Source of the DNA: a bacterium
GTDB taxonomy: Bacteria; Patescibacteriota; Minisyncoccia; JACQLN01
DNA length: 64,000 bases
Reading direction: 5' to 3'
NCBI GenBank assembly: GCA_030697795.1
Contig: JAUYOV010000006.1
Span: 21,722-85,721, forward strand
The position numbers and the translations under genes are program-made. Position 1 is the stretch's first letter. Every line of letters begins with the position of its first letter. Shown piece by piece: positions 4,153 through 51,567 of the stretch. The notes below the pieces were generated by a model that saw only the letters and a program-made list of their open reading frames with translations, did no database searches and had not been told where the DNA came from.

Positions 4153-4178
4153 CCCTACTTCGCTAAAGCTACGCAGGG
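4153..4178. repeat. family C hairpin element, copy C1 (ccctac-ttcgctaaagctac-gcaggg)
   Basis: Intergenic, downstream of ychF. Same loop sequence as the copies at 15395 and 43866. Confidence 0.7.
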
Positions 4179-4196
4179 CAGGCATTTCCACCTTTT

Positions 4197-5282
4197 TTAG
4201 ACTCTGAATTCAATCACGTCGCCGTCTTTGACGATATATTCCTTACCTTCAATGCGCAATAGGCCTAGATCGCGGGCTTTGGACCATGAGCCGGCTTCTA
4301 GGAGTTTGTCCCAGCGTATTACCTCGGCTCGTATAAAACGCTCTTCAAAGTCGGAATGGATGGCCCTGCCTGCACGAGGGGCTTTGGAATCAATAGGTAT
4401 AGTCCAAGCGCGGGTTTCGTCTTCGCCTGTGGTGAAGTAGGTCATTAAGCCCAAAGTTTCGTAGCTTTTGCGTATAAGCTTTTTTAAGCCAGTTTCTTTA
4501 ATGCCCGCCATTTCTAGTATTTCTTTTTTGTCGGCGTCAGTCGCGTTTGACGCGATTTCCTCAATCCCGATAGCTATGGCTAAATAGGGAATATTTCCAA
4601 GGAGTTTTTTTAAAGCTTCATCTGGTTGCCAGTTTTCTTCAAGTTCCGTTTCCGAAATATTAAATACAACCAGCATTGGTTTGTATGTTAAAATGCCGAT
4701 TTCGTAGGCGATTTTAATTTCGTCAGAATCAAGCTGGTCGTGGAGCAATTTGTTTTCTTCCAACAAATTTTTTATTTTCTGCAAGACATCTCGGCGTTTA
4801 ACTTTAATTTTGTCGCTCCGCCAGCTGGCGGATTTGGCTTCGGATTCAGCTCTGGTTAATGCTTTAGAAACTATGTCTAAATCTTTTAAAATTAATTCTA
4901 AATTTATGATTTCAAAATCCCGCACAGGATCTGGTGTGTTTTCTACATGTATAATATTGTCGTTTTTAAAAACTCTAACTAGGTGCAAAATAGCATCTAC
5001 ATCGCGAATGTTATTTAAAAATTCATTGCCTAAACCTAAGCCCTGCGAAGCGCCTTTTACTAAACCAGCAATATCGGCAAATTCTATTATGGCCGGCACG
5101 GTTTTTTTGGAATGAGAAAATTCGCTTAGTTTTTGTAAGCGTTCGTCTGGTATTGCAACCACGCCGATATTAGGGTCAATAGTTGCAAAAGGATAGTTAG
5201 CTATCACTACTTCCTTTTGGGTTAAGGTTTTAAATAGAGTAGATTTTCCAACGTTGGGTAAACCAACAATACCGATCTTCAT
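4197..5282 (-). CDS. ychF: ribosome-binding ATPase YchF (Obg-like GTPase family)
   Basis: MKIGIVGLPNVGKSTLF G1 motif and C-terminal TGS-like YIVKDGDVIEFRV. Start taken at the MKIGIV Met (5282). The longer ORF to 5339 reads through a GC-rich 5'UTR repeat. Confidence 0.88.
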   Translation of the reverse strand: MKIGIVGLPNVGKSTLFKTLTQKEVVIANYPFATIDPNIGVVAIPDERLQKLSEFSHSKKTVPAIIEFADIAGLVKGASQGLGLGNEFLNNIRDVDAILHLVRVFKNDNIIHVENTPDPVRDFEIINLELILKDLDIVSKALTRAESEAKSASWRSDKIKVKRRDVLQKIKNLLEENKLLHDQLDSDEIKIAYEIGILTYKPMLVVFNISETELEENWQPDEALKKLLGNIPYLAIAIGIEEIASNATDADKKEILEMAGIKETGLKKLIRKSYETLGLMTYFTTGEDETRAWTIPIDSKAPRAGRAIHSDFEERFIRAEVIRWDKLLEAGSWSKARDLGLLRIEGKEYIVKDGDVIEFRV

Positions 5283-5369
5283 GCATGCGAATAGCGCTCG
5301 CTCGTGCTTCGCACTCGCGAAATGCGAATGCGCCCACACGAATCAAATGCTATAATTATTCAAGATAAC

Positions 5370-6791
5370 ATGACTAGCAATATATTTCACGAATACGATA
5401 TTCGAGGGCACTATCCAGCAGAAGTTAACGAAACTATTTTTTATAACTTAGGTAAAGCGTATTACGAAGCTTTTAAACCTAAAAAAATTGCTATTGGGCG
5501 CGATTCAAGATTATCGTCGGACACTTTATTTTTGTATTTAGCTTCGGCGTTACAAAATGGGAAAGTAAAAATTATAGATCTAGGCTGTGTGAGCACACCT
5601 TTTTGTTTGTGGTATTCGCAAAAATATAAAGTGGATGCCTTAATGATAACAGCTTCTCATAATCCTAAAGATGAAAACGGGCTTAAGCTTTTTTCGGCAA
5701 AAAATGGAATAGTAGATAAGCTTAATGGTTTGGGTAAATTAGAAACCAAGTTTAAAGGCATTGGTATAAGCGAAGCTAAAATAGAACACAAAATTGATTC
5801 AAAAAAACATTCGCCCATAGCCGAATATGTTGATTTTATAATTAAAAAATATACTCCTGCTTCGCCCACCCTTCGCACAAGGCTACGGAGTGGCACGGCA
5901 AGGCTTCGCAGGATAAGCAAAATCAAAATCGCGCTAGATCTTTCTAATGGTTCGGCCGGGCAGGAATTTATTTTGGCATTGGAAAAATTAAAAATAGATT
6001 TTGCCACTTTAAACGAAACCCCCAACGGAAAATTTCCCGCGCATAGTCCCAATCCACTTTTAGCCGAAAGCCAAAAAGGCATAAAAATATTGCTTAAGCA
6101 GAGTAAGTTTAGTTTTGGCGCAATTATAGATGGTGATGGCGACAGAATTTTGTTCTTAGATGAACTAGGCGAAGTAGTAGATTCAAGTTATATATTTTCT
6201 TTGTTTATAGAAAATTATCTGCCCTATAAAAAAGCTAAAGCGATTGTAAAAAATATTGCTATTGGGCGGATTGTAGACGAAATTGCCAAGAAAAAAGGCT
6301 TGCAATTAGGCGTGGTGCCGGTGGGCAGAACCAAAATGCAGACGGTTATGAAAAAAATTAAGGCGGAAATGGGTGCAGAAAAATCTGGGCATTATTTTTT
6401 TAAAGATTTATATTATGGCGATAATGCCGTCGCCGCAATACTGGCCATGGTTTTTATTTTAGCTAAAAAGAAAAAATCTTTGTCTAAACTTTTAGAGCCC
6501 TATAAAAATTATATAATTATTCCAGAAATAAACATTCCTTTTGAGGGCAGGGTGGATAAAATTTTAGGCGCCATAAAAGATAAATATAAAAACGAAAACA
6601 TAAGCGAGATTGACGGCTTAACCGTAGAGAATCCAATCCCCGCAAAATCGCAAGGCGATAGCGGGGCAAGCTGGCGGTTTAACCTGCGCCGATCTAACAC
6701 CGAAAGCGTCTGGCGATTGAATCTAGAAGGTAAAAATAGGGAAGAGGTTGATAAGTTGAAAGAGGAGGTAGAGAATATCTTAAAATCTTAA
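5370..6791 (+). CDS. alpha-D-phosphohexomutase (phosphomannomutase/phosphoglucomutase/GlmM-like)
   Basis: Active-site TASHNP, metal loop DGDGDR, C-terminal phosphate loop FNLRRSNTE. Start at MTSNIF. Contains an in-frame GC-rich insertion coding TPASPTLRTRLRSGTARLRRIS (about 5863-5930). Confidence 0.85.
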   Translation: MTSNIFHEYDIRGHYPAEVNETIFYNLGKAYYEAFKPKKIAIGRDSRLSSDTLFLYLASALQNGKVKIIDLGCVSTPFCLWYSQKYKVDALMITASHNPKDENGLKLFSAKNGIVDKLNGLGKLETKFKGIGISEAKIEHKIDSKKHSPIAEYVDFIIKKYTPASPTLRTRLRSGTARLRRISKIKIALDLSNGSAGQEFILALEKLKIDFATLNETPNGKFPAHSPNPLLAESQKGIKILLKQSKFSFGAIIDGDGDRILFLDELGEVVDSSYIFSLFIENYLPYKKAKAIVKNIAIGRIVDEIAKKKGLQLGVVPVGRTKMQTVMKKIKAEMGAEKSGHYFFKDLYYGDNAVAAILAMVFILAKKKKSLSKLLEPYKNYIIIPEINIPFEGRVDKILGAIKDKYKNENISEIDGLTVENPIPAKSQGDSGASWRFNLRRSNTESVWRLNLEGKNREEVDKLKEEVENILKS

Positions 6792-6871
6792 AAATAGCAC
6801 GAGTCAGCGATCGCTGACTCGTGCTAAATGTTCTCCCTTAATACTCCCTTAGTAGTAAATAATAGTAAAAT

Positions 6872-8773
6872 TTATACTTGAATCAATACTGGCAAAATCA
6901 TTGGCCGGCGGTGAGTTTTTTGGAATAAGAATTGGCCCAAGCGTTCTTTTATTTCTTCCTTTATAAGCGCATCGTTAAAGGGGTGTTCGCTGGCCGTAGC
7001 GCCTTCCACAACTTTTCTAATAATCATTCTAGCGTCTAACAACATTTGTTTGTTGTCGCGCAAATAAATAAATCCACGGGAAATAATATCTGGGCTACCA
7101 CGCACTCGGCCACTTTTTGAATCTACCACAGCTACCACCATAAACATGCCATCTTCGGCTAGCATTTGTCTGTCGCGAAGTACTACTGAACCGACATCAC
7201 CAACACCCAAACCGTCTACCATAACCATCTCGGCCGGCACCGATTTTTTATCTACAGAAATTTGATCGGCAGTTACTCTAACCACATTGCCATTTTCTAC
7301 TACAACTATGTTTTCTTCTGGCATACCAAAACGTAGCCCAAGATCTTTCATCGCAAATAACATTGAAAGTTGGCCGTGGACAGGCATTAAGAATTTTGGC
7401 CTAACCAATTCCAACATATACATTAAATCGTCCTGTTGGCCGTGTCCGCCGGCGTGAATATCTAGCATTTTGTAGTTGTAAACTTTTACGCCGTGCCTAA
7501 GTAAATTATCTTTTAAATGCTGAATAGTGCGTTCATTGCCGGGAATAATAGAGGAAGAAAATATAATAGTATCTCCCTTTTTAAGTTCCAGTTGTTTGTG
7601 GCGGTGGGTGGCTAAACGCATCAAAACGGCGTTTTCTTCGCCTTGGCCGCCGGTACCCAAAACAGTAATTTTGCTGTCTGGGTATTTATTGCTTTCGGAA
7701 GCAGAAATTAAAGTACCTTTTTTAGTTTTGATGTAGCCCAAAACTTTAGAAACTTCTACCGCAGCTTTCATGCTAAAGCCTTCCACCACCACTTTACGAT
7801 TATATTTTTCGGAAATAGCAATAATTTGTTGGACGCGGTTAATGGCCGATGCAAACATACCCACAATAATTCGGCCCGGCGCTTCTTTAATTAATTTTTC
7901 TAAGTTGTCTTGAATATCGGATTCAGAAATAGAATGGCCCGGTTCTTCGGCGCCCGTACTGTCGCTCATAACCAAAAGCAAACCATCGTCGCCAATCTTT
8001 TTTAAGCGATCGATCTCGGCGGGTTTATCTATAACAGGATTATGGTCAAATTTAAAATCCGAAGTGCACATTATATTGCCCACTGGAGTTTTAATAAGCA
8101 AAGCCATATCGTCGGGAATACTGTGGTTGATGTGGATAAATTCAACTTCAAACACGCCAATTTTTCTTTTATCACCGCTTCTTATTTCGTCTATCATTAA
8201 CTTGGGCAGTTGTTTAAATTCTTCGTGGCGTTTTATAACCAAACCCTTGGTTAACGGCGCGGCATAGATCATTGGATTCTCTAGGCGTTCTAGCATATAA
8301 GGCAAAGCGCCAATGTGATCAAAGTGGCCGTGTGTAAAAATAAGACCGCTTATTTTATCTGTTTTATCTTCCAAATATTTTATATTAGGAATTAAAAGAT
8401 CTATACCCGGCATATCTTCCTCGGGAAATCTTACGCCAGCATCAATCAGCAAAATATCGCGATCGTCTTTATCGTAATCACGCCATTCTATCACCGTCAT
8501 ATTTCGGCCAACTTCGCCTAAGCCTCCTAACGGGATAATTCTTAAACAGTTTTTCTGCGGAGTTTTTGCCTGTTGTTCTGCGTTTTCTTCGTTGTTTCTT
8601 GGCATGAAGTTTGCCCTTGGGGTTCTTGGCCCACGAAAACTGTCTCCATCTTGGCTTGAGGATGATCTGAAAAATAGTTTACCTGAATTTGATGGTCGGC
8701 CACTGTGCCTGTTACCTTGTCTATTATTTTGTCTGTTACCACTATGTGGTCTGTATGGTTGATTCATAGTCAA
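6872..8773 (-). CDS. rnj: ribonuclease J (metallo-beta-lactamase / beta-CASP)
   Basis: IIPLGGLGEVGRNM and HGHFDHIGALPY. About 75-aa Arg/Asn/Ser-rich disordered N-terminal extension. Confidence 0.85.
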   Translation of the reverse strand: MTMNQPYRPHSGNRQNNRQGNRHSGRPSNSGKLFFRSSSSQDGDSFRGPRTPRANFMPRNNEENAEQQAKTPQKNCLRIIPLGGLGEVGRNMTVIEWRDYDKDDRDILLIDAGVRFPEEDMPGIDLLIPNIKYLEDKTDKISGLIFTHGHFDHIGALPYMLERLENPMIYAAPLTKGLVIKRHEEFKQLPKLMIDEIRSGDKRKIGVFEVEFIHINHSIPDDMALLIKTPVGNIMCTSDFKFDHNPVIDKPAEIDRLKKIGDDGLLLVMSDSTGAEEPGHSISESDIQDNLEKLIKEAPGRIIVGMFASAINRVQQIIAISEKYNRKVVVEGFSMKAAVEVSKVLGYIKTKKGTLISASESNKYPDSKITVLGTGGQGEENAVLMRLATHRHKQLELKKGDTIIFSSSIIPGNERTIQHLKDNLLRHGVKVYNYKMLDIHAGGHGQQDDLMYMLELVRPKFLMPVHGQLSMLFAMKDLGLRFGMPEENIVVVENGNVVRVTADQISVDKKSVPAEMVMVDGLGVGDVGSVVLRDRQMLAEDGMFMVVAVVDSKSGRVRGSPDIISRGFIYLRDNKQMLLDARMIIRKVVEGATASEHPFNDALIKEEIKERLGQFLFQKTHRRPMILPVLIQV

Positions 8774-8876
8774 ATATTAAATTACTAATTTCTAATATCC
8801 AATTTCTAATAAAAACCTAAATGTCTAAATGATTTAATCTTAATTAGACTTTTAAGCATTAGATATTTTATTAGTG

Positions 8877-8960
8877 TGCCCTCGAGAGGATTTGAACCTC
8901 TATGAGCTTGCGCTCGCAGCGACCTGAACGCTGTGTGTCTGCCGATTTCACCACGAGGGC
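8877..8960 (-). tRNA. tRNA-Leu (anticodon CAG), class II with long variable arm
   Basis: Minus-strand reading: acceptor gccctcg/cgagggc, anticodon stem cagcg / loop uuCAGgu, long variable arm, T-arm gaggttcaaatcctc, discriminator a. Confidence 0.8.
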
Positions 8961-8969
8961 TCTCTTCTT

Positions 8970-10712
8970 TTATTTCTTTATTCTCTTAGTAGCGGTATGC
9001 CATTTATTTATATTTTCAAACCTTTGGGACGGAGTATTGATGGCTTCGGCATTAAGGCCTTTAATTTTTCCAGATACAGCATAAATATAATTTGGACTAT
9101 AAAGGAATATAGCTGGAATATCTTGCATTATTATTTTCTCAAAGGCCTCATAGTTTTTTATTCTTTTGGTTGGATTATTTTCTTGCCGGGCTGATTCTAA
9201 AAGGCCATCAACTTTTTTATTATTGTATAAAGCTAAATTTAAACCAGGATCTCTTCTTTGGGTAGAATGCCAGAAAGAGAATGGGTCGGGGTTTAAACTC
9301 AACACCTCTCCAAAAAGTATGGCTTGATATTGGCGAGGCCTAATATTTTGGGTTTGAATGCCGTTAACGGGCACAACATCTAAATCTACTTTAGCTCCTA
9401 TTTTTTCCCAGTTTTGCTTTAGAGCGCTGGCCACTTGAGTGTGTTCGGGCCAATCGGTTGTGGTTAAGGCAAATTCTAATTTTGTTATTTTTCCTTTTAT
9501 TTTTTTCTCTCTTAGGCCATCTGCGCCAACTTTCCAGCCAGATTTATCGAGCACGTTTTTAGCGGTCTCAATATCAAAGTCATACTTTGTGTTTGATTCA
9601 TTAATTTTTAAAAGCCCAAAAGGCAACGGGCCGTTTTGAATTTGAGCTTCTTCTTTTAAAATATCTTTTACTATATCTTCCTTGTCTGTAGCATAAGATA
9701 AAGCTTTTCTGACATCGGTTTCAGCTAAAACATCGGATCTAGTTTGGTTAAAGAATACACCGTAATATCTAGGAAGTTTTATGTCGTAAAAAATTAGATC
9801 TCTGGATTTTTTAAGTTCGGTTTTGTCTAAAACTGAACTCAAAGAAAAGCCATCAATTTCGCGGCGCTTAAAAGCGCTAACAAGGTCTTCTTGATTTTCG
9901 TAGAAACGGATTCTTAGCAGAGAGATATTTGCTTTTTCATAATAGCGCGGATTAGGAGAAAACTCCATAGACTTTATAATTCCCGAAGCATTTTTTGTTA
10001 TTTTTGTAACTTGATATTGGCCCAAGCCTACCGGTTTTAAATTGAGCTGGGTTAATAAAAAGTTTTGAGGCTGAACGTTTTCCCAAATATGGCGAGGGAG
10101 AATGCCCAAGGTAGCGTTTTCCAAAAAGGGTTCGTAGGCTACGGGTAATTTTATTATAAAGCTATGATCATCTATTTTTTCTATTCTGACACCTTGCCAG
10201 TTATTTCTAAGCGGGCTTTGAAACTTGGAATCCTTAATTAGGTTTATGGTAAAAACCACATCATCTGTTGTTAAGGATTTTTTATCTGGCCAGCTTAAGT
10301 TTTCCCTAAGCTTAAATTCATAAATTTTGCCGTTGTCTCTTATTTGATAACTTTCGGCGAGGTCCGGAATAATTTCTCCTTTTTCATTATGTTTAACTAA
10401 GCCCGAAAAAACTAAAGTGGTTAAATCGCGATCAACTTCGCTAGCCGAAGCCAAGGCGGGGTTAATATAGCGCGGTTCGCCAATAATGCCTTCGGCATAT
10501 GTACCGCCCTCGGAAGCAGCCGAGGTTCTTAAAAACCAATAATCATAAACGCCTAAAAATAGGGTAGAAGTAATAGCTAAGCCTAAAAACACTAAAACAG
10601 CGTTTATTTCTTTTTCGCTTAACTGCCTAAGCAAGTAACGCCAGTGTTTAACCGATAACGAACGCAAAAATTTTATACGTTCCCAAATTTTTTTAAATTT
10701 TTCTTTCAACAA
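8970..10712 (-). CDS. ABC-type peptide/nickel substrate-binding protein, family 5 (OppA/DppA-like), N-terminal TM anchor
   Basis: Length 580 aa. N-terminal hydrophobic anchor then a family-5 SBP-like sequence. No adjacent permease genes. Confidence 0.7.
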   Translation of the reverse strand: MLKEKFKKIWERIKFLRSLSVKHWRYLLRQLSEKEINAVLVFLGLAITSTLFLGVYDYWFLRTSAASEGGTYAEGIIGEPRYINPALASASEVDRDLTTLVFSGLVKHNEKGEIIPDLAESYQIRDNGKIYEFKLRENLSWPDKKSLTTDDVVFTINLIKDSKFQSPLRNNWQGVRIEKIDDHSFIIKLPVAYEPFLENATLGILPRHIWENVQPQNFLLTQLNLKPVGLGQYQVTKITKNASGIIKSMEFSPNPRYYEKANISLLRIRFYENQEDLVSAFKRREIDGFSLSSVLDKTELKKSRDLIFYDIKLPRYYGVFFNQTRSDVLAETDVRKALSYATDKEDIVKDILKEEAQIQNGPLPFGLLKINESNTKYDFDIETAKNVLDKSGWKVGADGLREKKIKGKITKLEFALTTTDWPEHTQVASALKQNWEKIGAKVDLDVVPVNGIQTQNIRPRQYQAILFGEVLSLNPDPFSFWHSTQRRDPGLNLALYNNKKVDGLLESARQENNPTKRIKNYEAFEKIIMQDIPAIFLYSPNYIYAVSGKIKGLNAEAINTPSQRFENINKWHTATKRIKK

Positions 10713-10760
10713 ATGATTAATTAGCTATATTAGCGTTAGATTCGCTATATTAGCGAGAAG

Positions 10761-10970
10761 TTATAAAACTATATTAGCTAGAGCCGTGCCAAAAAACAAA
10801 ATAGATAAGATAATTGTAGCTACGAAAAGATATTTTTCGGGGCCTCTTTTGGTGTGATGAAATTCTCCTTCACCTCCAAAAGCGCCAGATAAGCCCGAGC
10901 CTTGGCGCTGAAGCAAGACAGTAATTATTAATAAGACAGCTAAAACGATTTGTATTATATTTATTATCAT
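10761..10970 (-). CDS. secG: preprotein translocase subunit SecG
   Basis: 69 aa with two TM segments and a central Gly-rich loop (LLQRQGSGLSGAFGGEGE). Confidence 0.7.
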   Translation of the reverse strand: MIINIIQIVLAVLLIITVLLQRQGSGLSGAFGGEGEFHHTKRGPEKYLFVATIILSILFFGTALANIVL

Positions 10971-10979
10971 TTTTGCAAT

Positions 10980-11045
10980 CCCGTTAGAAACAGTCCGCCC
11001 CTAGGCCCTTTGGGCGCGCAGAGCGCGGGCGTGGTTTCTAACGGG
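10980..11045. repeat. family D element: 12-bp inverted repeat (cccgttagaaac / gtttctaacggg) enclosing a 42-bp GC-rich multi-hairpin core
   Basis: Seen directly. Immediately downstream of secG. Confidence 0.6.
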
Positions 11046-11190: not shown

Positions 11191-11199
11191 GGTGATTGG

Positions 11200-11872: not shown

Positions 11873-13261
11873 TTATTTAGAAATAGCTTTTCTATGCAAT
11901 TTTCTATGATAGTTTATAGCAAATCGGTGAGCTTCATCGCGGATTGATTGAAAAAGATATTTTAAGCTTCTGCCAAATTTTTGAGCCAGTATCGGTTCTT
12001 TATTTTCGGGCAAATAGATTTCTTCTAATTTTTTAGCTAAAGATACAACTCTAATTTTGGTGGGGGACAATATTTCTAGCGCTGCATTTAGTTGTGTTCG
12101 GCCGCCATCCACGATTATCAACTGGGGCAGTGTCCAGTTATTGTTTAATCTGCGTTTAATAATTTCGGCTATCATAGCGGGATCGTTTATACCGTGCACG
12201 GTTTTTATTTTAAATTTTCTATATTCGTTTTTATTGGATTTGTATTCGCCGTTTTCTTGCAGTTCAAAAACAACCATAGAACCCACGGCTTCTGCGCCTT
12301 GAAAATTAGAGACGTCAAACGTCTCTAATCTTTTTGGGTTTTCTTTAAAGCCTAGTAACGTAAAATCGGATTTGTCGTCTTTAAATATAGAAGGCGAAGC
12401 AAATTCAAATTTTTCGGTTAATACTTTGGTATGTTTTAAAACAGAATCAAGGTTTGTTATTTGGTTTTTAATAGTTTTAGCTAATTCAAAGTTTTGGTTT
12501 TTTATTACTTGTTTTATTTCTTTTTTAAATTCTTTAAGTAAAACTTGGCTTCGGCCGGATAGCACCGATTTAATTGCCCGAATGTTTTTTTTATATTCAT
12601 TTAGCATGAGTCTGCGATCGCTGGCTCGTGCTAAGTTTGTTGATTTAAGGCAACAGAAAGTTAAGCACCGGCCCATATGTGCATTTAAACATTTGGTCTC
12701 ATGTTTTTGCTTGCAGGTGCAGTAGGGAAAAATATCGCGTAAAATATGCAAAGTTTTTCTAACAGCAGTGCCGTCGGTGAAAGGACCTAAACAGCTTTTA
12801 GTTTTTAGCTTATAGCTGTTAGGTTGATGCAGAGGAATAATTTTAGGGAATTCTTCTTTAGCTTGCCCTGAGCCCGTCGAATGGGTAATAGCAACGTATA
12901 AATAGTTTTTACTATCACGCATTAAGACATTAAACTTGGGTTTGTGTTTTTTAATAAGCTCGGATTCTTTTATTAAGGCTGCTATTTCCGAGTCAGTCCG
13001 CAATATTTCTATATCGGTAATTTCGGCAAGCATTTTAACTTTTGCTGGATTAAAAAACTTAACCCCTTTGTGCTTGTCCTCCGAAGCTTTAGCGAAGGAG
13101 GAAAAGTAGCTTTTGACTCTATTTTTTAAATTCCCCGATTTGCCAATATAAATAATCTCGCCGGCTTTATTCTTGAATAAATACACCCCCGGCGAAGCAG
13201 GTAATTTGGCTAGTTTTTTAGTGATTGACAGCATTTTCATTATCTGGTAATAATAAGACAA
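11873..13261 (-). CDS. uvrC: excinuclease ABC subunit C, short form without C-terminal (HhH)2 domain
   Basis: GIY-YIG module GVYLFKNKAGEIIYIGKSGNLKNRVKSYF and RNaseH-like endonuclease motif DEAHRFAINYHR. True start probably a few codons inside (MKMLSI). Confidence 0.8.
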   Translation of the reverse strand: MSYYYQIMKMLSITKKLAKLPASPGVYLFKNKAGEIIYIGKSGNLKNRVKSYFSSFAKASEDKHKGVKFFNPAKVKMLAEITDIEILRTDSEIAALIKESELIKKHKPKFNVLMRDSKNYLYVAITHSTGSGQAKEEFPKIIPLHQPNSYKLKTKSCLGPFTDGTAVRKTLHILRDIFPYCTCKQKHETKCLNAHMGRCLTFCCLKSTNLARASDRRLMLNEYKKNIRAIKSVLSGRSQVLLKEFKKEIKQVIKNQNFELAKTIKNQITNLDSVLKHTKVLTEKFEFASPSIFKDDKSDFTLLGFKENPKRLETFDVSNFQGAEAVGSMVVFELQENGEYKSNKNEYRKFKIKTVHGINDPAMIAEIIKRRLNNNWTLPQLIIVDGGRTQLNAALEILSPTKIRVVSLAKKLEEIYLPENKEPILAQKFGRSLKYLFQSIRDEAHRFAINYHRKLHRKAISK

Positions 13262-13961: not shown

Positions 13962-16916
13962 ATGTCTAGCCAAGATTACATCAAAATCCGCGGGGCGAGG
14001 GTGCATAATTTAAAAAATGTTAGTTTAGACATTCCCAAAAACAAGTTGGTGGTTATTACCGGCCTTTCGGGTTCGGGCAAGTCGTCGCTGGCGTTTGATA
14101 CGCTGTATGCTGAAGGGCAAAGAAGATATGTAGAAAGTTTGTCGGCTTATGCTCGGCAATTTTTAGGCATTATGGATAAGCCCGATGTGGATTCCATAGA
14201 TGGCTTGTCGCCGTCAATATCCATAGACCAAAAAAGCGTATCAAAAAATCCGCGCTCTACTGTTGGTACTATTACCGAAATTTATGATTACCTGCGTTTG
14301 TTGTTTGCTAGAGTCGGCAAACCTCATTGCCCCAAGTGTGATCGCGTAGTTTCGCGCCAAAGTCCAACGCAAATAACAGATAAAATTTTAAAATTTAAAA
14401 AAGGCACGGCTTTAGTAATTTTGGCGCCAATCATTCGCGATCAAAAAGGTGAACACAAAGCAGTTATTATGAAGTTATCAAATTCCGGCTATGCCAGAGT
14501 TAGAGTTAACGGTGAAATTTTAAAAGTTGAAGAAGCTTTAAAATTAAATTTAGAAAGATACAAGCGCCATTCAGTAGAAGCTGTGATAGACAGAGTGACC
14601 CTAGAAAGTGATCCCTCCTCCTTCGCCCCCACTTCGCCAAGGCTACGAGGGGCAAGCAGGGCTTCGGAGGACAAGGATCTTCGTGCTCGCATTGCGGAAT
14701 CCATAGAACAAGCTCTTAAATTAGGTGACGGTTTGATGATTGTCCAACACCTGGTGTTGGACAAGTATTCAAAAAAGGACCGCCCTTCCAGGAAGGGCGG
14801 TCCTTCCGAGGAGCTGTTTTCCGAAGCGATGTCGTGCGCTTATTGTGGTATAAATTTTCCAAATGTTGAACCAAGATCATTTTCTTTTAATAGCCCGCAC
14901 GGCGCTTGCCCGCATTGCACAGGTTTAGGTAATACCAAAGAAATTGATCCAGATTTAGTTTTTCCAAGCAAGCATATAACTTTGGCGGAAGGCGCCATTA
15001 AGCCGTGGGCTTCGGCTTCGCACCGCGTCGGCTACCAAGGTTGGTATTGGAGTATTGTGGAAGAAATTTCGCAAAAATACAGTTTTTCAGTTTCGGTGCC
15101 TGTAAAAGATTTACCGCAAAAATTTATAAACATTATTTTATATGGTGACAAAGATCGCGATGGCGATTTTGAGGGAGTTATTCCAAATTTATTGCGCCGT
15201 TACCGCGAAACCGAATCAGAATTTACCAGAGCCGAGATAGAACGCTATATGATAGATAAGGTTTGTCCGGTATGTAAGGGCGCACGTTTAAAGCCAGAAG
15301 TTTTAGCGGTTAAGTTTTTAGGAAAAAATATTAGCTATGTGGCAGATTTATCTATAAATGAATGCAAAAAGTTTTTTTCGGAGATTAAAGGTGGCCCTGC
15401 TTCGCTAAAGCTACGCAGGGTAAACTTAACCCAATCGGAGCTTCAAATAACTTTGCCAGTAGTTAAAGAAATTTTAAACAGATTAGATTTTTTGCTAAAT
15501 GTCGGGCTAGATTATTTAACACTTTCTCGTTCTTCGGCTACGCTTTCTGGTGGTGAAGCTCAACGTATTCGTTTAGCTACACAAATTGGTTCTGGTTTAA
15601 CAGGGGTTCTATATATACTAGACGAACCTTCTATTGGTTTGCATCAGCGCGATCAAAATAGGTTAATTAAAACGCTTAAACATTTACGCGACATCGGCAA
15701 CACTGTAGTGGTGGTGGAACATGATGAGCAGACTATCAATAATGCCGATTGGGTGATAGATGTAGGGCCGGGCGCGGGTAAACACGGCGGTAAAATAGTT
15801 TTTGAAGGAACGCCTCAACAGCTCAAAAAATCAGATAGCATTACAGGGCAGTATTTGTCTGGAAGGAAGAAAGTAGAAGGTGGAAAATTGAAAACGGAAA
15901 AGAAAAATTTATCTTCTACTTTCCATAATCTACCTTCTATTGTTATCAAAGGCGCACAGGAAAATAATCTCAAAAACATTACAGTCAAAATTCCCTTGGG
16001 ACAGTTTGTAGCAATCACGGGCGTTTCGGGTTCGGGTAAGTCTAGTTTGGTAAACGATATTTTGGCTAAATTTTTATTGCAAAAATTTTATAATGCTAAA
16101 GAATCTCCCGGAAAATTTACAGAAATAACTGGTTGGGAAAATTTAGATAAAGTTGTGGTGGTAGACCAAAGCCCGATAGGCCGAACACCGCGTTCTAACC
16201 CAGCCACATATACCGGAATGTTTAGTGTTATTCGCGATTTATTTGCCGCCACGCGCGAAGCAAAAGTTAGAGGTTTCGGGCCAGGCCGGTTTAGTTTTAA
16301 TGTAAAAGGCGGCAGATGCGAAGTGTGCGAAGGGCAGGGGGTAAGAAAAATTGAAATGCATTTTTTGCCCGATGTTTATGTGGAGTGCGAAGAATGCCAT
16401 GGCACGCGCTATAACAAAGAAGCGCTAGAGGTGGAATACAAAGGCAAAAATATTGCTCAAGTTTTAAAAATGCCGGTGGAAGACGCTTTTGAATTTTTTA
16501 AAAATATTCCCTCGTTAAAACAAAAAATTGGAACATTGCTGGAAGTCGGTTTAGGTTATATGGAATTAGGCCAGCCGGCTACCACATTGTCTGGCGGGGA
16601 GGCTCAAAGAATAAAACTTGCCACAGAATTATCGCGGCGCGATACGGGCAAAACTTTATATAGTTTGGATGAACCAACCACGGGTTTGCATTTTGAGGAT
16701 ATAAATAAACTGCTTAGGGTTTTGCATTTGCTGGTTGAAAAAGGCAATACGGTTTTAGTTATTGAACATAATTTGGATGTTATTAGAACGGCGCATCATA
16801 TTATAGACTTAGGTCCAGAAGGCGGTAATGGCGGAGGCAAAATTGTAGCGGTGGGCACTCCGCAGCAAATCAGCCAAACTAAAAATAGTTACACTGGACA
16901 GTTTCTGCGTAAGTGA
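13962..16916 (+). CDS. uvrA: excinuclease ABC subunit A
   Basis: Two ABC ATPase modules ([23 protein letters not shown]; [13 protein letters not shown]), Zn-finger Cys clusters, LSGGEAQR signatures. 984 aa because of three in-frame palindromic-element insertions. Confidence 0.95.
14777..14803. repeat. family B palindrome, copy B2, in-frame inside uvrA (encodes [12 protein letters not shown])
   Basis: aaaaaa-ggaccgcccttcc-a-ggaagggcggtcc. Same flank as terminator copy B1. Confidence 0.85.
15395..15420. repeat. family C hairpin, copy C2, in-frame inside uvrA (encodes [10 protein letters not shown])
   Basis: ccctgc-ttcgctaaagctac-gcaggg. Stem fully compensated relative to C1 and C3. Confidence 0.8.
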
Positions 16917-16918
16917 TC

Positions 16919-16953
16919 GGAAGGACCGCCCTTCCAGGAAGGGCGGTCCTTCC
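16919..16953. repeat. family B palindrome, copy B3, immediately after the uvrA stop (35-bp near-perfect palindrome)
   Basis: ggaaggaccgcccttcc-a-ggaagggcggtccttcc. Marks the left edge of a GC-rich island. Confidence 0.85.
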
Positions 16954-17047
16954 TGTACTCAATATTGACATTATTGGCAAATATTTGCTATGTTTTATGA
17001 GTTCTTTTTTAACTAATTTCCCAAAACCCTTTATAATGGGAGGAACT

Positions 17048-18158: not shown

Positions 18159-18318
18159 GTCCAAATGGCATAGTCAGCAATTTATGCGATCACATAAATT
18201 GCTGACCGGTGCTAATTATTGCAAGAAACTATACGACGCAAAATTTGGGTTGTCTTACTGGGGTTGACCCCGTTAGAGATCGCGCGGGCTCGTAGCGACC
18301 CCCCATCTCTAATTGGGG

Positions 18319-18911: not shown

Positions 18912-18949
18912 ACGTGTCCTGAGCATACGATCGTATGCTCAGGACACGT
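18912..18949. repeat. family A palindromic element, copy A2
   Basis: acgtgtcctGAGCATACGATCGTATGCTCaggacacgt, a perfect 38-bp palindrome. Same core as A1 with different compensated arms. Confidence 0.85.
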
Positions 18950-19143
18950 TTCAGAATTTATATACATATTAAAAAATCACTAGAAAAATTTAGAAAACCA
19001 AAAGAGCTTGACCCTAGTTCTAACATTTGCTACATTATCAATCGTAATAGAAGAGTGATAAAATCATTTAGATAATAGAGCATAGAAGGTGGAAAGTAGC
19101 TTTAAATCTATCTTCTAAAATCTACTTTCTAAATTTCAAACAT

Positions 19144-43836: not shown

Positions 43837-43865
43837 GCTCGAAATTCAAATATCTAAATCCTAAA

Positions 43866-43891
43866 CCCTACTTCGCTAAAGCTTCGTAGGG
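43866..43891. repeat. family C hairpin, copy C3 (ccctac-ttcgctaaagcttc-gtaggg)
   Basis: Intergenic between mraY and the aminoacylase. Confidence 0.7.
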
Positions 43892-43990
43892 CACAGCAAT
43901 ATCATGCATTTGAATTTGCTTGCCCGCCGTAGTTTTAACAGAGGCGGGTTTCGGATTTCGAATTTCGTGCTTCGAATTTATTTTAGCATA

Positions 43991-45037: not shown

Positions 45038-45039
45038 AG

Positions 45040-46583: not shown

Positions 46584-47269
46584 CGCAATTTTATATCTTC
46601 AAAATTAGAATTTTGTTGGGCGGTAATTTTTAAACTCTTTAACAATTCTAACACACAAAGAAATGTTATTAACTTAACTTCTGGGTTAGCGGTATCGGCA
46701 ATTTGAGAAAAATTTAGTTCTAGTTTTTCTTTAATATCTTTTTCTAGATCCGCTGTTTTTTCTGCCAAGGAAACTTTTTCTATAAGCTGGGCTTGAGGAA
46801 TTCTTTGGGGCAAAGTAATTGTGCTTATTAAGCTTGTTAAAGAATCAGACAAAGCTTCACCTGTTAATTTTTTAGGAAAATAAAAAACAGGTTCCATTTT
46901 AGCCAAATAAGCTCGGTTATAATATCTACTGCCTTTTATATCCAACTTATGAATCTCTTTAGCTAGTTCTTTAAGTTTTTGATATTCGGCCAGTTGGTCT
47001 TTTAAACTTTGAATATCTTTTTCTTCTTCTGCGGTCAGCTTCAAAAAAGGCAAAAGTGCGCGCGATTTTATTAAAGCCAAACGGCCGGCAATATTTAAAA
47101 AATTGGCCATATCGGCCATAGCCAAGTTAGTAGAGCTTTTTAAATAATCTAAAAATTGACCAGCGACTTCGGCTAAAGATATTTCGGTTATTTCTAATTT
47201 TTTAGATTCTATAAGTTGATGTAATAAATCTAGCGGGCCTTCAAATTTTGCTAGTTTTAGTTGATACAT
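46568..47269 (-). CDS. scpA: segregation and condensation protein A
   Basis: FEGPLDLLHQLIESKKLEITEISLAEVAGQFLDYL. Confidence 0.8.
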   Translation of the reverse strand: MYQLKLAKFEGPLDLLHQLIESKKLEITEISLAEVAGQFLDYLKSSTNLAMADMANFLNIAGRLALIKSRALLPFLKLTAEEEKDIQSLKDQLAEYQKLKELAKEIHKLDIKGSRYYNRAYLAKMEPVFYFPKKLTGEALSDSLTSLISTITLPQRIPQAQLIEKVSLAEKTADLEKDIKEKLELNFSQIADTANPEVKLITFLCVLELLKSLKITAQQNSNFEDIKLRWLNQ

Positions 47270-47290
47270 ATTTTTTACAGTTTCATATGA

Positions 47291-49504
47291 CTAAAATAGA
47301 TTTCTCAACCAACGGAAAAGTCTTTTTGGCAGCTCTTTTATTTTTTGTACACTTTCTGATGGTTTTAGATTATTCTGTTTTGAATTTATTTTTTGATTTT
47401 TGTCGGCAGGTTCAATAACTATTGATTCCTTTTGTATTTGATTAGTTTTAGGTTGCTCTGTGGTTTTTTGTATATTTTGATTTGTTGTAGGTACGGCAAG
47501 ATTGCCCTTAGTATCTGTATCGGGAATGAATAATTTTAAAGAGCCAAGTTTTTTAAGATCTATATCTTCCAAAATAGAAACCCTTGAATAACTATTATTG
47601 CTCGTACCGCTATAGGTAATACCTGAATTACCCAACCAAGAATTGATTGTATTTATAGACAATATATACCCAAGCGCGTTTAACTCACCCTTAACTACGG
47701 CAGAGGGTATGCCTATAAATGTTCCGTCTTTAAGATATGCTCCTCCGCCAGAATTTCCGTATTCCAATATAGCAGTCGTTTTTATATAACTTCCATCTGT
47801 GCCGCTAAAATCTCCGCTTGTGTATGTAACTTTTGTGCCAAATTTCGCAGGGAAGCCATATGTAGTAACCTTAGTACCCAAGCGAAGATTACTACTACTT
47901 TTTGTTATATCAACACTTGTCAGATTTTTATTTTGAGGGTTTCTAATTTTTAGAATGGCAATATCTTGATTGGGTGAGATTTTTGTAATATCGGCTATAT
48001 GTCTGTCTCCAAAATATGGCTCATCATTAAAGTCATTTATAAATCCAACCAAGCAACCTAATGTCCCAGCTATAACATGCTTGTTAGTTAAAATAGTCCC
48101 ATTAGAATCAATAATCGTACCTGAACCTTGACTAGCTCTCTTCGCATCAACAGGACACAAAAGTTTAACAGTAGATTTTATTATAGCATCTTGATTTGAA
48201 ATTTCATCAGAACTATTTTGTGGTATTTGTTGTGTAGGTCTATTTGGTGCTTCGCAATATTGGTCAGTTGTTGGCGGTGCTGTTTCTACGCTTGAGCAAT
48301 CAAAAGTTTTTCTACAGCTTCTATTTTGTATTCCTGAAAGTGAGCAAGAATTCCAATCATCACAAGTCCATGTATCGGCATCGCAAGTTGGTTGTATAGG
48401 GATTATGGGCTTTGGTGGAGGCGTACAACTTTGGTTTAAAATAGGATTACCTCCAGTACAGCCGTTTGGCGATGCGGAAGTAATCGGTCGCGTTTGTTGT
48501 CCATTTACCGAGCATGTACTCCATGCAGAATATGTCCACGAGATACAGGGTGGGGGCGTATAAGTACATACTTGTGCGACTGACGGAGACGGAGTATCAA
48601 CATCTGAGCAATCAAAAGTCTTCGTGCAACTGCGTGATTGTTTGCCCTCTAGTGAGCAAGTGTTCCAATCACCACATGACCAAATGTCTGTAGTACAAGG
48701 CGGTGGAGTACTGGCGACATCAACAGAGAAGGAATTACTTATATAGTCCTTACCATCGGGCCCATCTACAGCACTAGAACATTCATCGTCAAGACATTTA
48801 ACTTTTACATAAAAAGATGTTTTGCCATATGGTCTTTTCAAATCGTCGAGATTAACTAAAACCCTTATCACATCATGCTCTCTAAGCACTATTTTATGGC
48901 TAGTGCCATTCGTTTCATAAACTCGAGCGTTGCTTACCGAAACATCTGGGTTGCCTGGCATGCCAAAATTTTCTCCGTGGATCCATACCTCAGTTCCTTG
49001 CGATGTAACTATCTTTCGCGTTACGCTGGTTATTTTAGGAGGACCCCATGGAATGATTTTAAGAGGAAAAGCATTACTTCTAACTGGCGATGTTTCTGAT
49101 GAATGAGATCTCTCTATCACGAGATAAAAATTTCTCGGGTCTTCAAAGTTACTAGGGTAGACGAGAATTTTTGTATCTGTCCAAGTGCCTGTAGTTTGTC
49201 CGCGATTATTGGGGCCGAAAACCCTTGACGAACCCTGACTGGTTCCAAAATATTCACCAATAATCTCGACTGGGGCTGTTTGAATATAGTTAATCGCACT
49301 CGGAGATATTGAGGTTATTTTTGGTAGTGGTCGTTTGCAGGCCTGACTAATAACTGGATCGCCCCCAGTACAAGTCTCTGGACCTAACGACGATACCGTT
49401 CTCGTCTGTTTTGCATCAACAGAGCAAACACTCCAGTCGGAATATATAAAAGGAGTACACTCGGTTTGTGCTTTGGTAACTTGAGCTAAAACAAAACCCG
49501 CCAC
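47291..49504 (-). CDS. secreted trypsin-like serine protease with four N-terminal Cys-rich repeats
   Basis: Repeats C..W.C..W..CS..G.Q.R.C (x4). Protease core GSGTIID..GTILTNKHVI ... GNSGGGAY. Confidence 0.6.
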   Translation of the reverse strand: MAGFVLAQVTKAQTECTPFIYSDWSVCSVDAKQTRTVSSLGPETCTGGDPVISQACKRPLPKITSISPSAINYIQTAPVEIIGEYFGTSQGSSRVFGPNNRGQTTGTWTDTKILVYPSNFEDPRNFYLVIERSHSSETSPVRSNAFPLKIIPWGPPKITSVTRKIVTSQGTEVWIHGENFGMPGNPDVSVSNARVYETNGTSHKIVLREHDVIRVLVNLDDLKRPYGKTSFYVKVKCLDDECSSAVDGPDGKDYISNSFSVDVASTPPPCTTDIWSCGDWNTCSLEGKQSRSCTKTFDCSDVDTPSPSVAQVCTYTPPPCISWTYSAWSTCSVNGQQTRPITSASPNGCTGGNPILNQSCTPPPKPIIPIQPTCDADTWTCDDWNSCSLSGIQNRSCRKTFDCSSVETAPPTTDQYCEAPNRPTQQIPQNSSDEISNQDAIIKSTVKLLCPVDAKRASQGSGTIIDSNGTILTNKHVIAGTLGCLVGFINDFNDEPYFGDRHIADITKISPNQDIAILKIRNPQNKNLTSVDITKSSSNLRLGTKVTTYGFPAKFGTKVTYTSGDFSGTDGSYIKTTAILEYGNSGGGAYLKDGTFIGIPSAVVKGELNALGYILSINTINSWLGNSGITYSGTSNNSYSRVSILEDIDLKKLGSLKLFIPDTDTKGNLAVPTTNQNIQKTTEQPKTNQIQKESIVIEPADKNQKINSKQNNLKPSESVQKIKELPKRLFRWLRNLF

Positions 49505-49559
49505 AATAGTTAGTAGCAGAACAGCTATTCTTGAATACTTTTTAAAAATTTTAATATTT

Positions 49560-49683
49560 TTATTTTATTAAATCACCAACATTAACTTCAAGGGCTTTCG
49601 CCACTTTCTTTAAGGTTTCAAGTGTCGGATTTTGATTTTTTCTTGTCTCAATTTTAAAAGTAATTTTATTTAGCGAACGAATC
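49560..49683 (-). pseudogene. Xre-family HTH C-terminal fragment (..KITFKIETRKNQNPTLETLKKVAKALEVNVGDLIK*), no start codon
   Basis: In frame behind the stop of ORF 49686..50006. A degenerate second copy lies at about 50017-50085. Confidence 0.35.
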
Positions 49684-49685
49684 CA

Positions 49686-50006
49686 TTATTTCGTGTTAAA
49701 ATGTAAAGTTATTTCATTTACTTTAACCCATTCTACGATGTATGATTTTTTGAGTGGACTTAGAAAATTTACTTTCAATTTTTTCTCATCAGAAAAATTT
49801 ACTATAGCACACCAAATGGGACCCCCAAATATATAATTTCTTCTGTTCTTTGTTTTTGTAGTTACAGTAATTATTAAGTTTTCTGGTGTAGTATATTCAT
49901 GTATATATTCACCGTCATGCTCTGGCATTTTTATCAAATCTCTTTTAAGTAATTGAACCTGTTCATTTTTTCTCAAAACCTCAAAGGGCTTCTTTTTGTT
50001 TTCCAT
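49686..50006 (-). CDS. hypothetical protein (106 aa) flanked by about 70-bp imperfect direct repeats
   Basis: ORF only. Confidence 0.4.
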   Translation of the reverse strand: MENKKKPFEVLRKNEQVQLLKRDLIKMPEHDGEYIHEYTTPENLIITVTTKTKNRRNYIFGGPIWCAIVNFSDEKKLKVNFLSPLKKSYIVEWVKVNEITLHFNTK

Positions 50007-50130
50007 TTTTTTACTTTATTAAATCATCAATACTCATCTCAATGGTTTTTGCAACCTTCTAAATTTTTGAAGTTTTATATGATACATCTATTAAAAAGCT
50101 CTAAACCCTAAAAACTAAACTCTAAAATAA

Positions 50131-51567
50131 TTACTTTTTCTCGATTACTTTGATTCCCAATTCCTTTAACTGCTTTTCCGAAATTTCCGCAGGTGCATCC
50201 ATCATTAAATCCCGGCCGTCGCCTGTTTTTGGAAACGAAAACACTTCACGAATGTTTGGCTCACCCGTAAGCAAAGTAACCAATCTATCTAACCCCCAAG
50301 CAATACCGCCATGAGGCGGTGTACCGTAACCTAGAGCTGTAAGCATATGCCCAAAGTTAGAAGAAATTTTTTCTTCTGAAAAACCCATAATTTCAAAAAC
50401 TTTCTTTAGCAGTTCTGGTTTATGGTTACGAATACTGCCACCGCCGATTTCGAAACCATTTAAAGCTATATCGTATTGCGTGGTTAAAATTTTATCTATA
50501 TTTTCTTTATTCATTAGCCATTCTATATGTTCATCTTTTGGTTTAGAAAACGGATTATGTGTAAACGTCCACTTCTTCGCTCCTTCGGAGCTTCGAAGTG
50601 CAGGCACTTTCTTATCCTCTTTAATTTCTTCAAAAAAAGGAAAGTCAACCACCCAACAAAAAGCTAACAGATCTTTATCATTTTTATTTTTTCTTAAGTC
50701 CGGTCGGTCGGTGCCATATTTTTCCATAGCTTCGGCGTAACTGACTCTGGGGAAAGGAGTTTCTTGTATTTTTTTATTTGGAAAGAGTTCTTTTATCAAG
50801 TTAGTCAGTAAAGATTCATTTAGGGCCATAACATCTTCTCTTTCCACAAAAGACATTTCTAAATCCAGCTGGGTAAATTCTGGTTGTCTGTCTCCCCTAG
50901 TGTCTTCGTCTCTGAAACATCTGGCAATTTGAAAATACCTTTCGAACCCCGCCACCATTAAAAGTTGTTTATATTGTTGCGGACTTTGAGGTAAGGCATA
51001 AAACTTGCCGTTTTGTAAGCGCGAAGGTACCACATAATCGCGGGCGCCTTCGGGAGTCGATTTAGTTAAAATAGGAGTTTCTATTTCTACAAATTCTTTT
51101 TTAGCAAGCCAGTTTCTAATAAATTGAATTATCTGGAAACGCGTGCAAATATTTTTTTGAAGCCTATCTCGGCGCAAATCTAGATAACGATATTTCATTC
51201 GTGTGTCCTCCCCTATTTCTAAACCGTCTGTATCCAAAGCAAAAGGCGGAGTTAGGCTCTCATTTAAAATTTTAAGCGCAGTAACTTGAAGTTCTACCTC
51301 GCCTGTAGGAATTTCCGAATTTATCATACCCTTGGGGCGTTCGGAAACTTGGCCTTCCAATTGCACCACAAAGCCCGTACGCAGGCTATCACCCAGTTTA
51401 TGTAGTTCAGTATTATTTGGCAAAAAGACGCATTGTAAGACGCCAGTTCTATCTTTAACGTCTATAAAGATAAGCTTGCCGTGGTCGCGCCTGCCCCAAA
51501 TCCAGCCGTAAACACTAACACTTTGCCCCTTGTTTTCAGGGGTTTTAGATATCAAAATCCGTTGCAT
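50131..51567 (-). CDS. aspS: aspartate--tRNA ligase (short, 478 aa)
   Basis: Class II motifs FRDEDTRGDRQPEFTQLD, GGSIRNH, GLDRLVTLL. Carries an in-frame GC-rich hairpin insertion coding PALRSSEGAK (50570-50600). Confidence 0.9.
   Translation of the reverse strand: MQRILISKTPENKGQSVSVYGWIWGRRDHGKLIFIDVKDRTGVLQCVFLPNNTELHKLGDSLRTGFVVQLEGQVSERPKGMINSEIPTGEVELQVTALKILNESLTPPFALDTDGLEIGEDTRMKYRYLDLRRDRLQKNICTRFQIIQFIRNWLAKKEFVEIETPILTKSTPEGARDYVVPSRLQNGKFYALPQSPQQYKQLLMVAGFERYFQIARCFRDEDTRGDRQPEFTQLDLEMSFVEREDVMALNESLLTNLIKELFPNKKIQETPFPRVSYAEAMEKYGTDRPDLRKNKNDKDLLAFCWVVDFPFFEEIKEDKKVPALRSSEGAKKWTFTHNPFSKPKDEHIEWLMNKENIDKILTTQYDIALNGFEIGGGSIRNHKPELLKKVFEIMGFSEEKISSNFGHMLTALGYGTPPHGGIAWGLDRLVTLLTGEPNIREVFSFPKTGDGRDLMMDAPAEISEKQLKELGIKVIEKK

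Follow-up and report, generated by a model that had tools for sequence, protein, structure and literature searches.

Family C, a 30-nt hairpin inserted in frame in genes of a Patescibacteria genome, is probably a REP/RPE-like mobile element

Short GC-rich hairpins lie between genes and inside the coding sequences of uvrA, uvrC, aspS and a phosphohexomutase gene in a 64,000-nt stretch of bacterial DNA (hereafter the window; contig JAUYOV010000006.1 of GCA_030697795.1, positions 21,722-85,721, forward strand), and the question they raise is how they came to be there. Judged by its UvrA and aspartyl-tRNA synthetase (AspRS) homologues, the host belongs to the Patescibacteria, with Parcubacteria/Minisyncoccia-like metagenome-assembled genomes (MAGs). 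An earlier inspection of the letters without database searches (the sequence-only reading) had singled out three clear copies of one hairpin, named family C, at 4153-4178, 15395-15420 and 43866-43891, and had likened it to Rickettsia palindromic elements (RPEs). All three copies are present at these positions. The window contains 11 units altogether, with more in relatives and elsewhere, and the evidence makes it likely that family C is a non-autonomous mobile insertional DNA element of 30 nt (10 codons), similar to RPEs and to repetitive extragenic palindromes (REPs). Patescibacteria are regarded as having minimal, streamlined genomes; in this one, nonetheless, loops of the essential proteins UvrA, UvrC, AspRS and a phosphohexomutase are remodelled by a repeat that was active recently.

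Architecture and copies of the family C unit

When up to two mismatches were allowed, the family C loop was found 8 times in the window against 0.66 expected, and none of 100 shuffled sequences reached 8. The flanks of all these window matches shared one plan: a 6-bp stem, TTCGC-TAAA-GCTWC, the complementary arm and CA(A/G)G. A scan for the exact 14-nt loop in one genome per species returned at least 120 loci. The 30-nt consensus is YCCKCC-TTCGCTAAAGCTWC-GGMGGR-CAAR, with a covarying 6-bp stem, a 3x3 internal loop (TTC/TWC), a GC-TAAA-GC tip that does not vary and, at the 3' end, the unpaired tetranucleotide CAAR; the predicted fold is ((((((...((....))...)))))). In a position profile of 130 copies, conservation extended from -6 to +23 and was random beyond, and these sharp edges define the unit as 30 nt long. 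The terminal tag in 131 copies was CAAG, CAGG or TAAA (YTTG on the opposite strand).

The sequence-only reading had noticed compensatory changes in the stems of its three copies, and statistics on 131 copies bear this out. At least five of six stem pairs formed in 118 of 131 exact-loop copies, where about 9 would be expected by chance (our own calculation). Paired bases accounted for 89.7% of stem cells, as compared with 24-47% in slid controls, and changes on both sides of the stem numbered 153 cells against 53.6 +/- 5.5 in shuffles (0 of 500 as high). About half of all copies carried one stem mismatch, and G.U-compatible stem variants were present. No Rfam family matched family C at gathering or permissive thresholds, the hits being noise only.

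A covariance model (R1) trained on the 131 copies and run on the window gave nine matches at E <=0.3, which with two interrupted outer units make up the 11 units:

3379-3413 (-): variant unit, intergenic, upstream of rpmA (L27), TCCCCC-TTCGC-TCTTTCAGA-GCTTC-GGAGGG-ATGC; 19-nt loop as in the aspS variant; R1 20.1 bits, E=0.004
4153-4182 (+): canonical unit, intergenic, just 3' of the ychF stop, CCCTAC-TTCGCTAAAGCTAC-GCAGGG-CAGG; R1 46.0 bits, E=3e-10
5855-5917 (+): outer unit of 30 nt in the phosphohexomutase gene, TCCTGC-TTCGC^CAAGGCTTC-GCAGGA-TAAG, interrupted at ^
5866-5898 (+): inner unit of 33 nt in the apical loop of the outer mutase unit, CCACCC-TTCGCACAAGGCTAC-GGAGTGG-CACGG; R1 13.4 bits
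13073-13102 (-): perfect canonical unit in uvrC, TCCTCC-TTCGCTAAAGCTTC-GGAGGA-CAAG; peptide SSFAKASEDK; R1 50.5 bits
14616-14675 (+): outer unit at uvrA site 1 (residues 219-238), TCCTCC-TTCGC^CAGGGCTTC-GGAGGA-CAAG, interrupted at ^
14627-14656 (+): inner unit of 30 nt in the loop of the outer uvrA unit, CCCCAC-TTCGCCAAGGCTAC-GAGGGG-CAAG; R1 27.6 bits
15395-15424 (+): canonical unit at uvrA site 3 (residues ~478-487), CCCTGC-TTCGCTAAAGCTAC-GCAGGG-TAAA; peptide (G)PASLKLRRV(N)
43866-43895 (+): canonical unit, intergenic, between mraY and an amidohydrolase gene, CCCTAC-TTCGCTAAAGCTTC-GTAGGG-CACA; R1 47.4 bits
43919-43948 (-): degenerate unit, found by a generic hairpin scan, CCCGCC-TCTGTTAAAACTAC-GGCGGG-CAAG; R1 19.2 bits, E=0.007
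50570-50604 (+): variant unit on the strand opposite aspS, CACTTC-TTCGC-TCCTTCGGA-GCTTC-GAAGTG-CAGG; R1 26.8 bits

The units in uvrC, at 3379 and at 43919 are additional to those recognised before, and several earlier descriptions needed amendment. The single loop quoted for the three clear copies was right in general, apart from one base at 43866, where the loop is TTCGCTAAAGCTTC; the 4153 stem contains one A.C mismatch. The GC-rich segments reported at uvrA 14610-14680 and mutase 5863-5930 are indeed there; they are more than the related degenerate sequence they had been taken for, and each comprises two complete units, one nested in the other. The aspS hairpin (50570-50600) was described correctly and is in fact a family C unit on the opposite strand, with TCCTTCGGA in place of the TAAA tip. 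As for the three inserts proposed in uvrA, three exist, the middle one (14777-14811) belonging to a different palindrome family.

Eight of the 11 units are intragenic, in both orientations, and eight lie between 3.4 and 15.5 kb. The 43919 unit is inverted and 23 nt away from the 43866 unit, forming a tail-to-tail pair that is the only inverted pair in the window. The uvrA and uvrC genes hold 3 of 9 independent sites yet make up 6.7% of the window (binomial P ~0.02, our calculation), an excess that could equally be explained by local clustering or by tolerant linkers.

Insertion polarity, nesting and tolerance in proteins

Relatives were located by homology. Five relative loci, including L001, L002, L004 and L005, were syntenic with the window over ~2.5-27 kb, with roughly 75-86% DNA identity to it in genes; L004 and L005 are 96.6% identical to each other. 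Insertion polarity was read from alignments of the window with these relatives at the protein and codon level. In uvrC, an exact 30-nt insert (TCCTCCTTCGCTAAAGCTTCGGAGGACAAG) separated TAC TTT from CAC AAA, and the site was empty in L001, L002 and L004. Site 1 of uvrA was empty in L002 and L004, carried the outer unit alone in L001 (TCCTCCTTCGCCAAGGCTTCGGAGGACAAG, SSFAKASEDK) and carried outer and inner units in the window; the inner unit (14627-14656) was found in the window only and aligned with an exact 10-codon gap in L001. The occurrence of the outer unit alone in L001 indicates stepwise insertion. At uvrA site 3 the unit was missing from L001 and L002, and L004 and L005 had in exactly the loop that holds family C in the window an unrelated, translated palindrome centred on CGATCG (GTCAGCTTTTTAGGCGATCGCCTAAAAAGCTGAC). 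The double unit of the mutase, translated in the window as (T)PASPTLRTRLRSGTARLRRI(S), was absent from the 445-aa orthologues of L002, L004 and L005, which have 4 ancestral codons instead. No target-site duplication was visible in alignments with relatives at the uvrC, uvrA or mutase insertion sites. Family C presence also differed between L004 and L005 despite their high identity: at the position upstream of rpmA homologous to 3379-3413, L005 had a family C copy and L004 had none.

These comparisons show that new family C copies were gained at new sites in this Parcubacteria-like lineage after the split from relatives of ~80-90% identity, in either orientation and without target duplication, and that the gained sites include the apical loop of earlier family C copies. 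The earlier proposal that the insertions are in frame and their peptides non-ancestral is in agreement with these results, as both the syntenic relatives and solved UvrA proteins lack the peptides and the DNA gaps measure exactly 30 or 60 nt. The sequence-only reading had set ancestral peptides, or a lack of further copies, against insertion; neither was found at four of the five intragenic sites, and the aspS peptide is shared by relatives at 81-87% identity.

That sharing in aspS, together with the fact that the window and its relatives all come from metagenome-assembled sequences, is what could favour an explanation of the peptides as ancestral low-complexity linkers or as assembly artefacts. 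It is contradicted by the empty sites in the syntenic relatives and in solved UvrA sequences, by the outer uvrA unit at the same site in the independent assembly L001, by the recurrence of one DNA unit in unrelated genes and in intergenic DNA, and by the presence of the unit in Bradyrhizobium and Mesorhizobium isolate genomes and in one complete Maricaulis chromosome. This explanation is already refuted for uvrA, uvrC and the mutase, and overall we regard it as hardly credible.

The aspS site itself has a distinct history. Its unit occupies a hypervariable AspRS loop between DFPFFE and WTFTHNPF and is translated as (V)PALRSSEGAK(K). The peptide was shared with homologues at 87% and 81% identity and was missing in others; further homologues carried canonical units in either orientation in the same loop (HFEALAKKW, SPSLKLRK); in the homologue P0228, residues ~324-360 consisted of four tandem translated repeats HSEALAESAV. 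A unit common to homologues at 81-87% identity in a loop that is hit recurrently is older than, or recurrent in comparison with, the uvr and mutase events, and as judged from these homologues insertion there is not a recent event: the site is a hot spot, either old or hit repeatedly.

In both the uvrA (14616-14675) and the mutase (5855-5917) segments, the inner unit lay between TTCGC and CAAGG of the outer loop, so that the two inner units of the window (14627-14656 and 5866-5898) share the junction TTCGCY^AAAG/CAAGG. Nesting at the same loop-tip position was found in L032 and L085. A strict count gave 3 nested cases in 214 copies (window uvrA, L032 and L085) where fewer than 0.1 would be expected for random sites; the inner mutase unit fails this filter, and looser cases occurred in L036, L097 and L108. 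Six window sites had suggested a sequence-specific target ^AAAG (YTTK^ on the other strand). This candidate was rejected: the flank profile of 130 copies was flat and revealed no conserved target. The only recurrent target of family C is its own loop tip. Because nesting there is far above random placement, it suggests targeting by structure, and we infer that insertion may be directed at exposed single-stranded hairpin tips, not at a sequence motif.

Coding sites appear to have filtered the copies that survive. Family C copies are selected against at coding sites, which we count in favour of a mobile element: with long open frames as the measure, 24% of copies outside Patescibacteria were intragenic against 68% of random positions, and 46% against 59% within Patescibacteria. 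Only one frame per strand contains a stop codon (TAA forward, TAG reverse), leaving 4 of 6 frames open. The inner mutase unit uses the forward stop frame, its loop variant lacking TAA. Frame analysis and the locations of the copies suggest that surviving intragenic units keep the reading frame, avoid the stop-containing frame of each strand and sit in a tolerant loop, where translation would give short peptides rich in Ser, Ala, Arg and Lys that have no evident role themselves. A length that is a multiple of three and four open frames would suit the unit to gene-dense genomes.

Placement in tolerant surface loops, as the sequence-only reading had supposed, is supported by UvrA. Where the window protein has its three inserts, distant UvrA sequences of solved structure lack 22, 15 and 12 residues. 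In an AlphaFold model that is weak overall (mean pLDDT 67.7), residues 219-238, ~265-281 and 478-487 were coil with pLDDT <50, between secondary-structure elements. The earlier remark that UvrA is unusually long was also correct: the protein has 984 aa, and those of its closest relatives have 933-948 aa. Family C explains much of the length variation among orthologues, UvrA ranging from 919 to 1029 aa among the homologues listed, and is the source of unusual peptides, rich in Arg, Ser and Ala, that mislead annotation and alignment.

Distribution and affinity with known palindromic elements

Almost every match among the species-genome loci had the same context, with covarying stems, and the unit was present in more than 120 species genomes of many phyla. 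Among the matches listed, about 30 were in Patescibacteria of many classes, and others were in Alphaproteobacteria (the Bradyrhizobium, Mesorhizobium and Maricaulis genomes among them), Bacteroidota, Verrucomicrobiota, Planctomycetota, Nitrospirota and further groups. In viral contigs the pattern matched 113 loci and its reversed control 27, with good stems in 96 of 131 viral copies; some viral copies had AT-rich stems, in contigs labelled as giant-virus MAGs. No description of family C was found in the searchable literature, much of the subscription literature lying outside that coverage, and there is a real chance that it is a broadly distributed element lacking formal description so far.

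A bolder extension, which we consider doubtful, is that family C is an undescribed, pan-bacterial 30-nt mobile hairpin present also in contigs catalogued as phage or giant-virus. Its loop would be constant, its stem would drift by compensation and track host GC content, it would home to hairpin tips including its own, and its 10-codon, mostly stop-free design would let it colonise essential genes. If true, this would imply that the activity mobilising it is either conserved very widely or encoded by the host, or else is of a new type.

An invariant 14-nt loop with a covarying stem across phyla could also mean that the unit is a selected cis-element, which might serve as a binding site in RNA or DNA, stabilise or terminate mRNAs, or mask the ribosome-binding site through CCUCC/GGAGG pairing, with intragenic copies being incidental. 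The G.U-compatible stem variants and the intergenic copies at gene ends (4153 after ychF, and the inverted pair 43866/43919) are in keeping with this idea. It is opposed by the eight of 11 window units inside essential genes in both orientations, by presence or absence that varies between close relatives and by the lack of an Rfam match, and it leaves nesting and in-frame spread unexplained. As an alternative to mobility we rate it quite improbable; a cis-acting role is compatible with a mobile REP/RPE-like element and does not exclude it.

REPs, with the tags GTAG or CGTC, and paired REPs (REPINs) have been described together with REP-associated tyrosine transposases (RAYTs) (Di Nocera et al. 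2013, PMC3733652; Bertels & Rainey 2011, PMC3116915). Enterobacterial-type REPs consist of a stem, unpaired trinucleotides, a short GC-flanked loop and a terminal tetranucleotide (PMC3733652). Family C resembles REPs in several respects. It is a GC-rich imperfect palindrome within the 20-40-nt range (30 nt, 11 per 64 kb); it has the modular order of stem, unpaired di- or trinucleotides, GC-flanked short loop and unpaired terminal tetranucleotide; its subfamilies are set apart by complementary stem changes; and it occurs as singletons, inverted pairs and tandem arrays, occasionally within genes and without target duplication. Head-to-tail tandem family C units with a 31-nt period were observed at L059 5469-5546, in a Babeliaceae MAG. 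Many intragenic REPs lie in uvrA, uvrB, uvrC and other repair genes (PMC3733652), and the location of family C in uvr genes echoes the remark of Di Nocera et al. on intragenic REPs in nucleotide-excision-repair genes (PMC3733652).

The differences from REPs are also clear. Most REP families are confined to one species or genus; the family C loop, by contrast, is identical in different phyla. REPs are predominantly extragenic, which is not so for family C in the window (8/11 intragenic) or in Patescibacteria (46%) and is partly so elsewhere (24%). Family C nests in its own loop, and no RAYT associated with it was found in the window and 125 loci. Unlike REPINs, the documented new insertions are single 30-nt units, with 43866/43919 as the one inverted pair.

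RPEs are a family restricted to Rickettsia, and RPE-1 measures roughly 100-150 bp. They share with family C the in-frame presence of palindromic repeats in protein genes, including repair genes, of a small-genome bacterium, where they are translated and tolerated in loops; family C behaves in this way in uvrA, uvrC, the mutase gene and aspS, the likeness being one of behaviour and not of sequence. The comparison made by the sequence-only reading therefore holds for behaviour and not for family membership. Family C is found in a Patescibacteria MAG, is 30 nt long and carries a CAAR tag, features that distinguish it by RPE descriptions, not by alignment. The short RPE-4 and RPE-6 are CGTC-tagged (PMC3733652). 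The REP-encoded peptides of the PMC3733652 supplement were compared with family C peptides and gave no match.

Insertion sequences of the IS200/IS605 type share with family C hairpin-defined ends and a lack of target duplication. They encode TnpA of the HUH/Y1 type, transpose as single strands and insert 3' of a fixed tetra- or pentanucleotide. The analogy may extend to action on single-stranded DNA and to a conserved short motif for cleavage at the 3' end. Family C differs in that its flanks contain no conserved target (130 copies) and in being a single 30-nt hairpin with no gene and no linked TnpA. Miniature inverted-repeat transposable elements (MITEs) are typically ~100 bp or longer, with terminal inverted repeats and target-site duplications. 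They too are non-autonomous repeats able to extend or alter coding sequences, and differ from family C, which has 30 nt and neither terminal inverted repeats nor target-site duplications. Bacterial MITEs occur inside genes, for instance in Coxiella (PMC5896051). The Correia elements of Neisseria are a further example. Among these systems we rate family C as belonging with the REP/RPE-like miniature palindromic insertions.

The mobiliser question and neighbouring palindromes

Several observations weigh against a mobile REP/RPE-like element. None of the ~30 window ORFs scanned against Pfam, all ordinary cellular or unassigned, was a transposase, and a RAYT/TIRYT profile made from the alignment in the PMC3733652 supplement had no match among all window ORFs. 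The only Y1-transposase genes that turned up in Parcubacteria-like loci, of family PF01797, are flanked by a different hairpin, and their 20-kb surroundings were without family C. In place of the GTAG or CGTC that define REPs, the unit ends in CAAR (YTTG on the opposite strand). Folded as DNA, the hairpin has little thermodynamic stability (-3 to -5 kcal/mol, z ~ -1 to -1.7). The aspS unit is not lineage-specific, and two insertions are common to the window and L005 while the closer L004 lacks them, a pattern that could result from recombination, from recurrent insertion or from precise excision. The evidence base consists of 64 kb of this genome and fragments of relatives.

Among 125 loci, the RAYT profile matched two (L015 and L017), neither flanked by family C. 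The match in the parcubacterial L015 is a PF01797 protein (IS200/RAYT-like, ~180 aa, in the region 3763-4530) with HYQ at the expected HUH motif. It and three homologues (L266, L267 and L268, around 9870-10600) are flanked by a hairpin ACRSAC-TNNA-GTSYGT, which neither the window nor its relatives contain. These IS200-like PF01797 genes of Parcubacteria were therefore rejected as direct mobilisers of family C, since they go with a different hairpin and have neighbourhoods without family C.

Under our preferred reading of family C as a mobile REP/RPE-like element, an enzyme acting in trans from a gene elsewhere would copy or move the unit in the form of a single-stranded DNA hairpin. A hairpin with an unpaired tag, insertion without target duplication, both orientations and targeting of hairpin tips all match REP/RAYT and IS200/IS605 systems, which makes an HUH/Y1-type transposase the leading candidate by analogy; even so, we regard a single-strand HUH-type mechanism as possible but unlikely. 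An identical loop across phyla, a covarying stem and self-nesting at the tip together offer a handle on what moves REP-like elements in the absence of a RAYT.

Host replication or repair might instead make the copies with no dedicated transposase, by template switching or hairpin-primed copying into a nearby break or tip. The lack of a transposase in the window, the clustering of eight of 11 units at 3.4-15.5 kb and nesting precisely at the tip of the hairpin, where nicking would naturally occur, are all consistent with this, and fold-back copying gives matched arms that could mimic covariation. About half of the copies have one stem mismatch, though, so the arms are not always freshly templated; insertions of exactly 30 nt occur at sites without homology to the unit; and its presence in distant phyla and viral contigs suggests a recognised sequence. 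We consider such copying improbable.

Other palindromes and inserts accompany family C. A second hairpin family of the same general plan, CCCCGC-AAAATCGCAAGGCGATA-GCGGGG-CAAG, lies at 6638-6670 (+) as a window-specific, in-frame mutase insert of 33 nt (PAKSQGDSGAS) that is missing in L002, L004 and L005; its DNA fold has -9.3 kcal/mol (z = -3.1). Site 2 of uvrA (14741-14811, ~16 extra residues) contains the palindromes CCAACAC-CTG-GTGTTGG and GGACCGCCCTTCC..GGAAGGGCGGTCC, the latter recurring in extended form directly after the uvrA stop (16917-16955). A related GGACTGCCCTTCC palindrome was found in L004 at ~14254-14363. Perfect palindromes centred on CGATCG, such as ACGAGTCAGCGATCGCTGACTCGT, stand at gene ends in the window at 6797-6831 and 18926-18958.

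In uvrC, a 24-nt in-frame insert at 12860-12883 (-), CATTCGACGGGCTCAGGGCAAGCT (HSTGSGQA), ends in the motif GGGCAAGC; it is present at the identical site in L005 and missing in L004, L002 and L001. Its occurrence in the window and L005 but not in L004 points to recombination, recurrent insertion or precise loss. An element of ~70 nt at 10974-11044 has a GC-rich core bounded by the inverted ends CCCGTTAGAAAC...GTTTCTAACGGG. L004 and L005 share it with the window, L002 lacks it, and L005 has an extra 72-nt copy at 7088-7159; a related CCCGTTAGAG motif lies near 18.27 kb (18260-18311). A 51-nt insert with the hairpin CCCCGT..ACGGGG-CAGG was observed at the N-terminus of the UvrA homologues P0002, P0011 and P0013 (L004 10028-10078), flanked by a duplicated host stretch (IKIR...IKVR) that in P0011 comprises 9 residues (IKIRGARVH ... 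IRIRGARVH). In contrast to family C, the arrangement resembles an insertion with target duplication.

Two further features of the window were recorded. A tRNA-Leu(CAG) at 8876-8960 (-) was predicted by ARAGORN, was not reported by Rfam at the gathering threshold and is missing from the syntenic L002. The cumulative GC skew peaks at ~27-28 kb and gene orientation changes from plus to minus near 35.8 kb, a pattern that would be consistent with a terminus of replication or with a strand-switch region.

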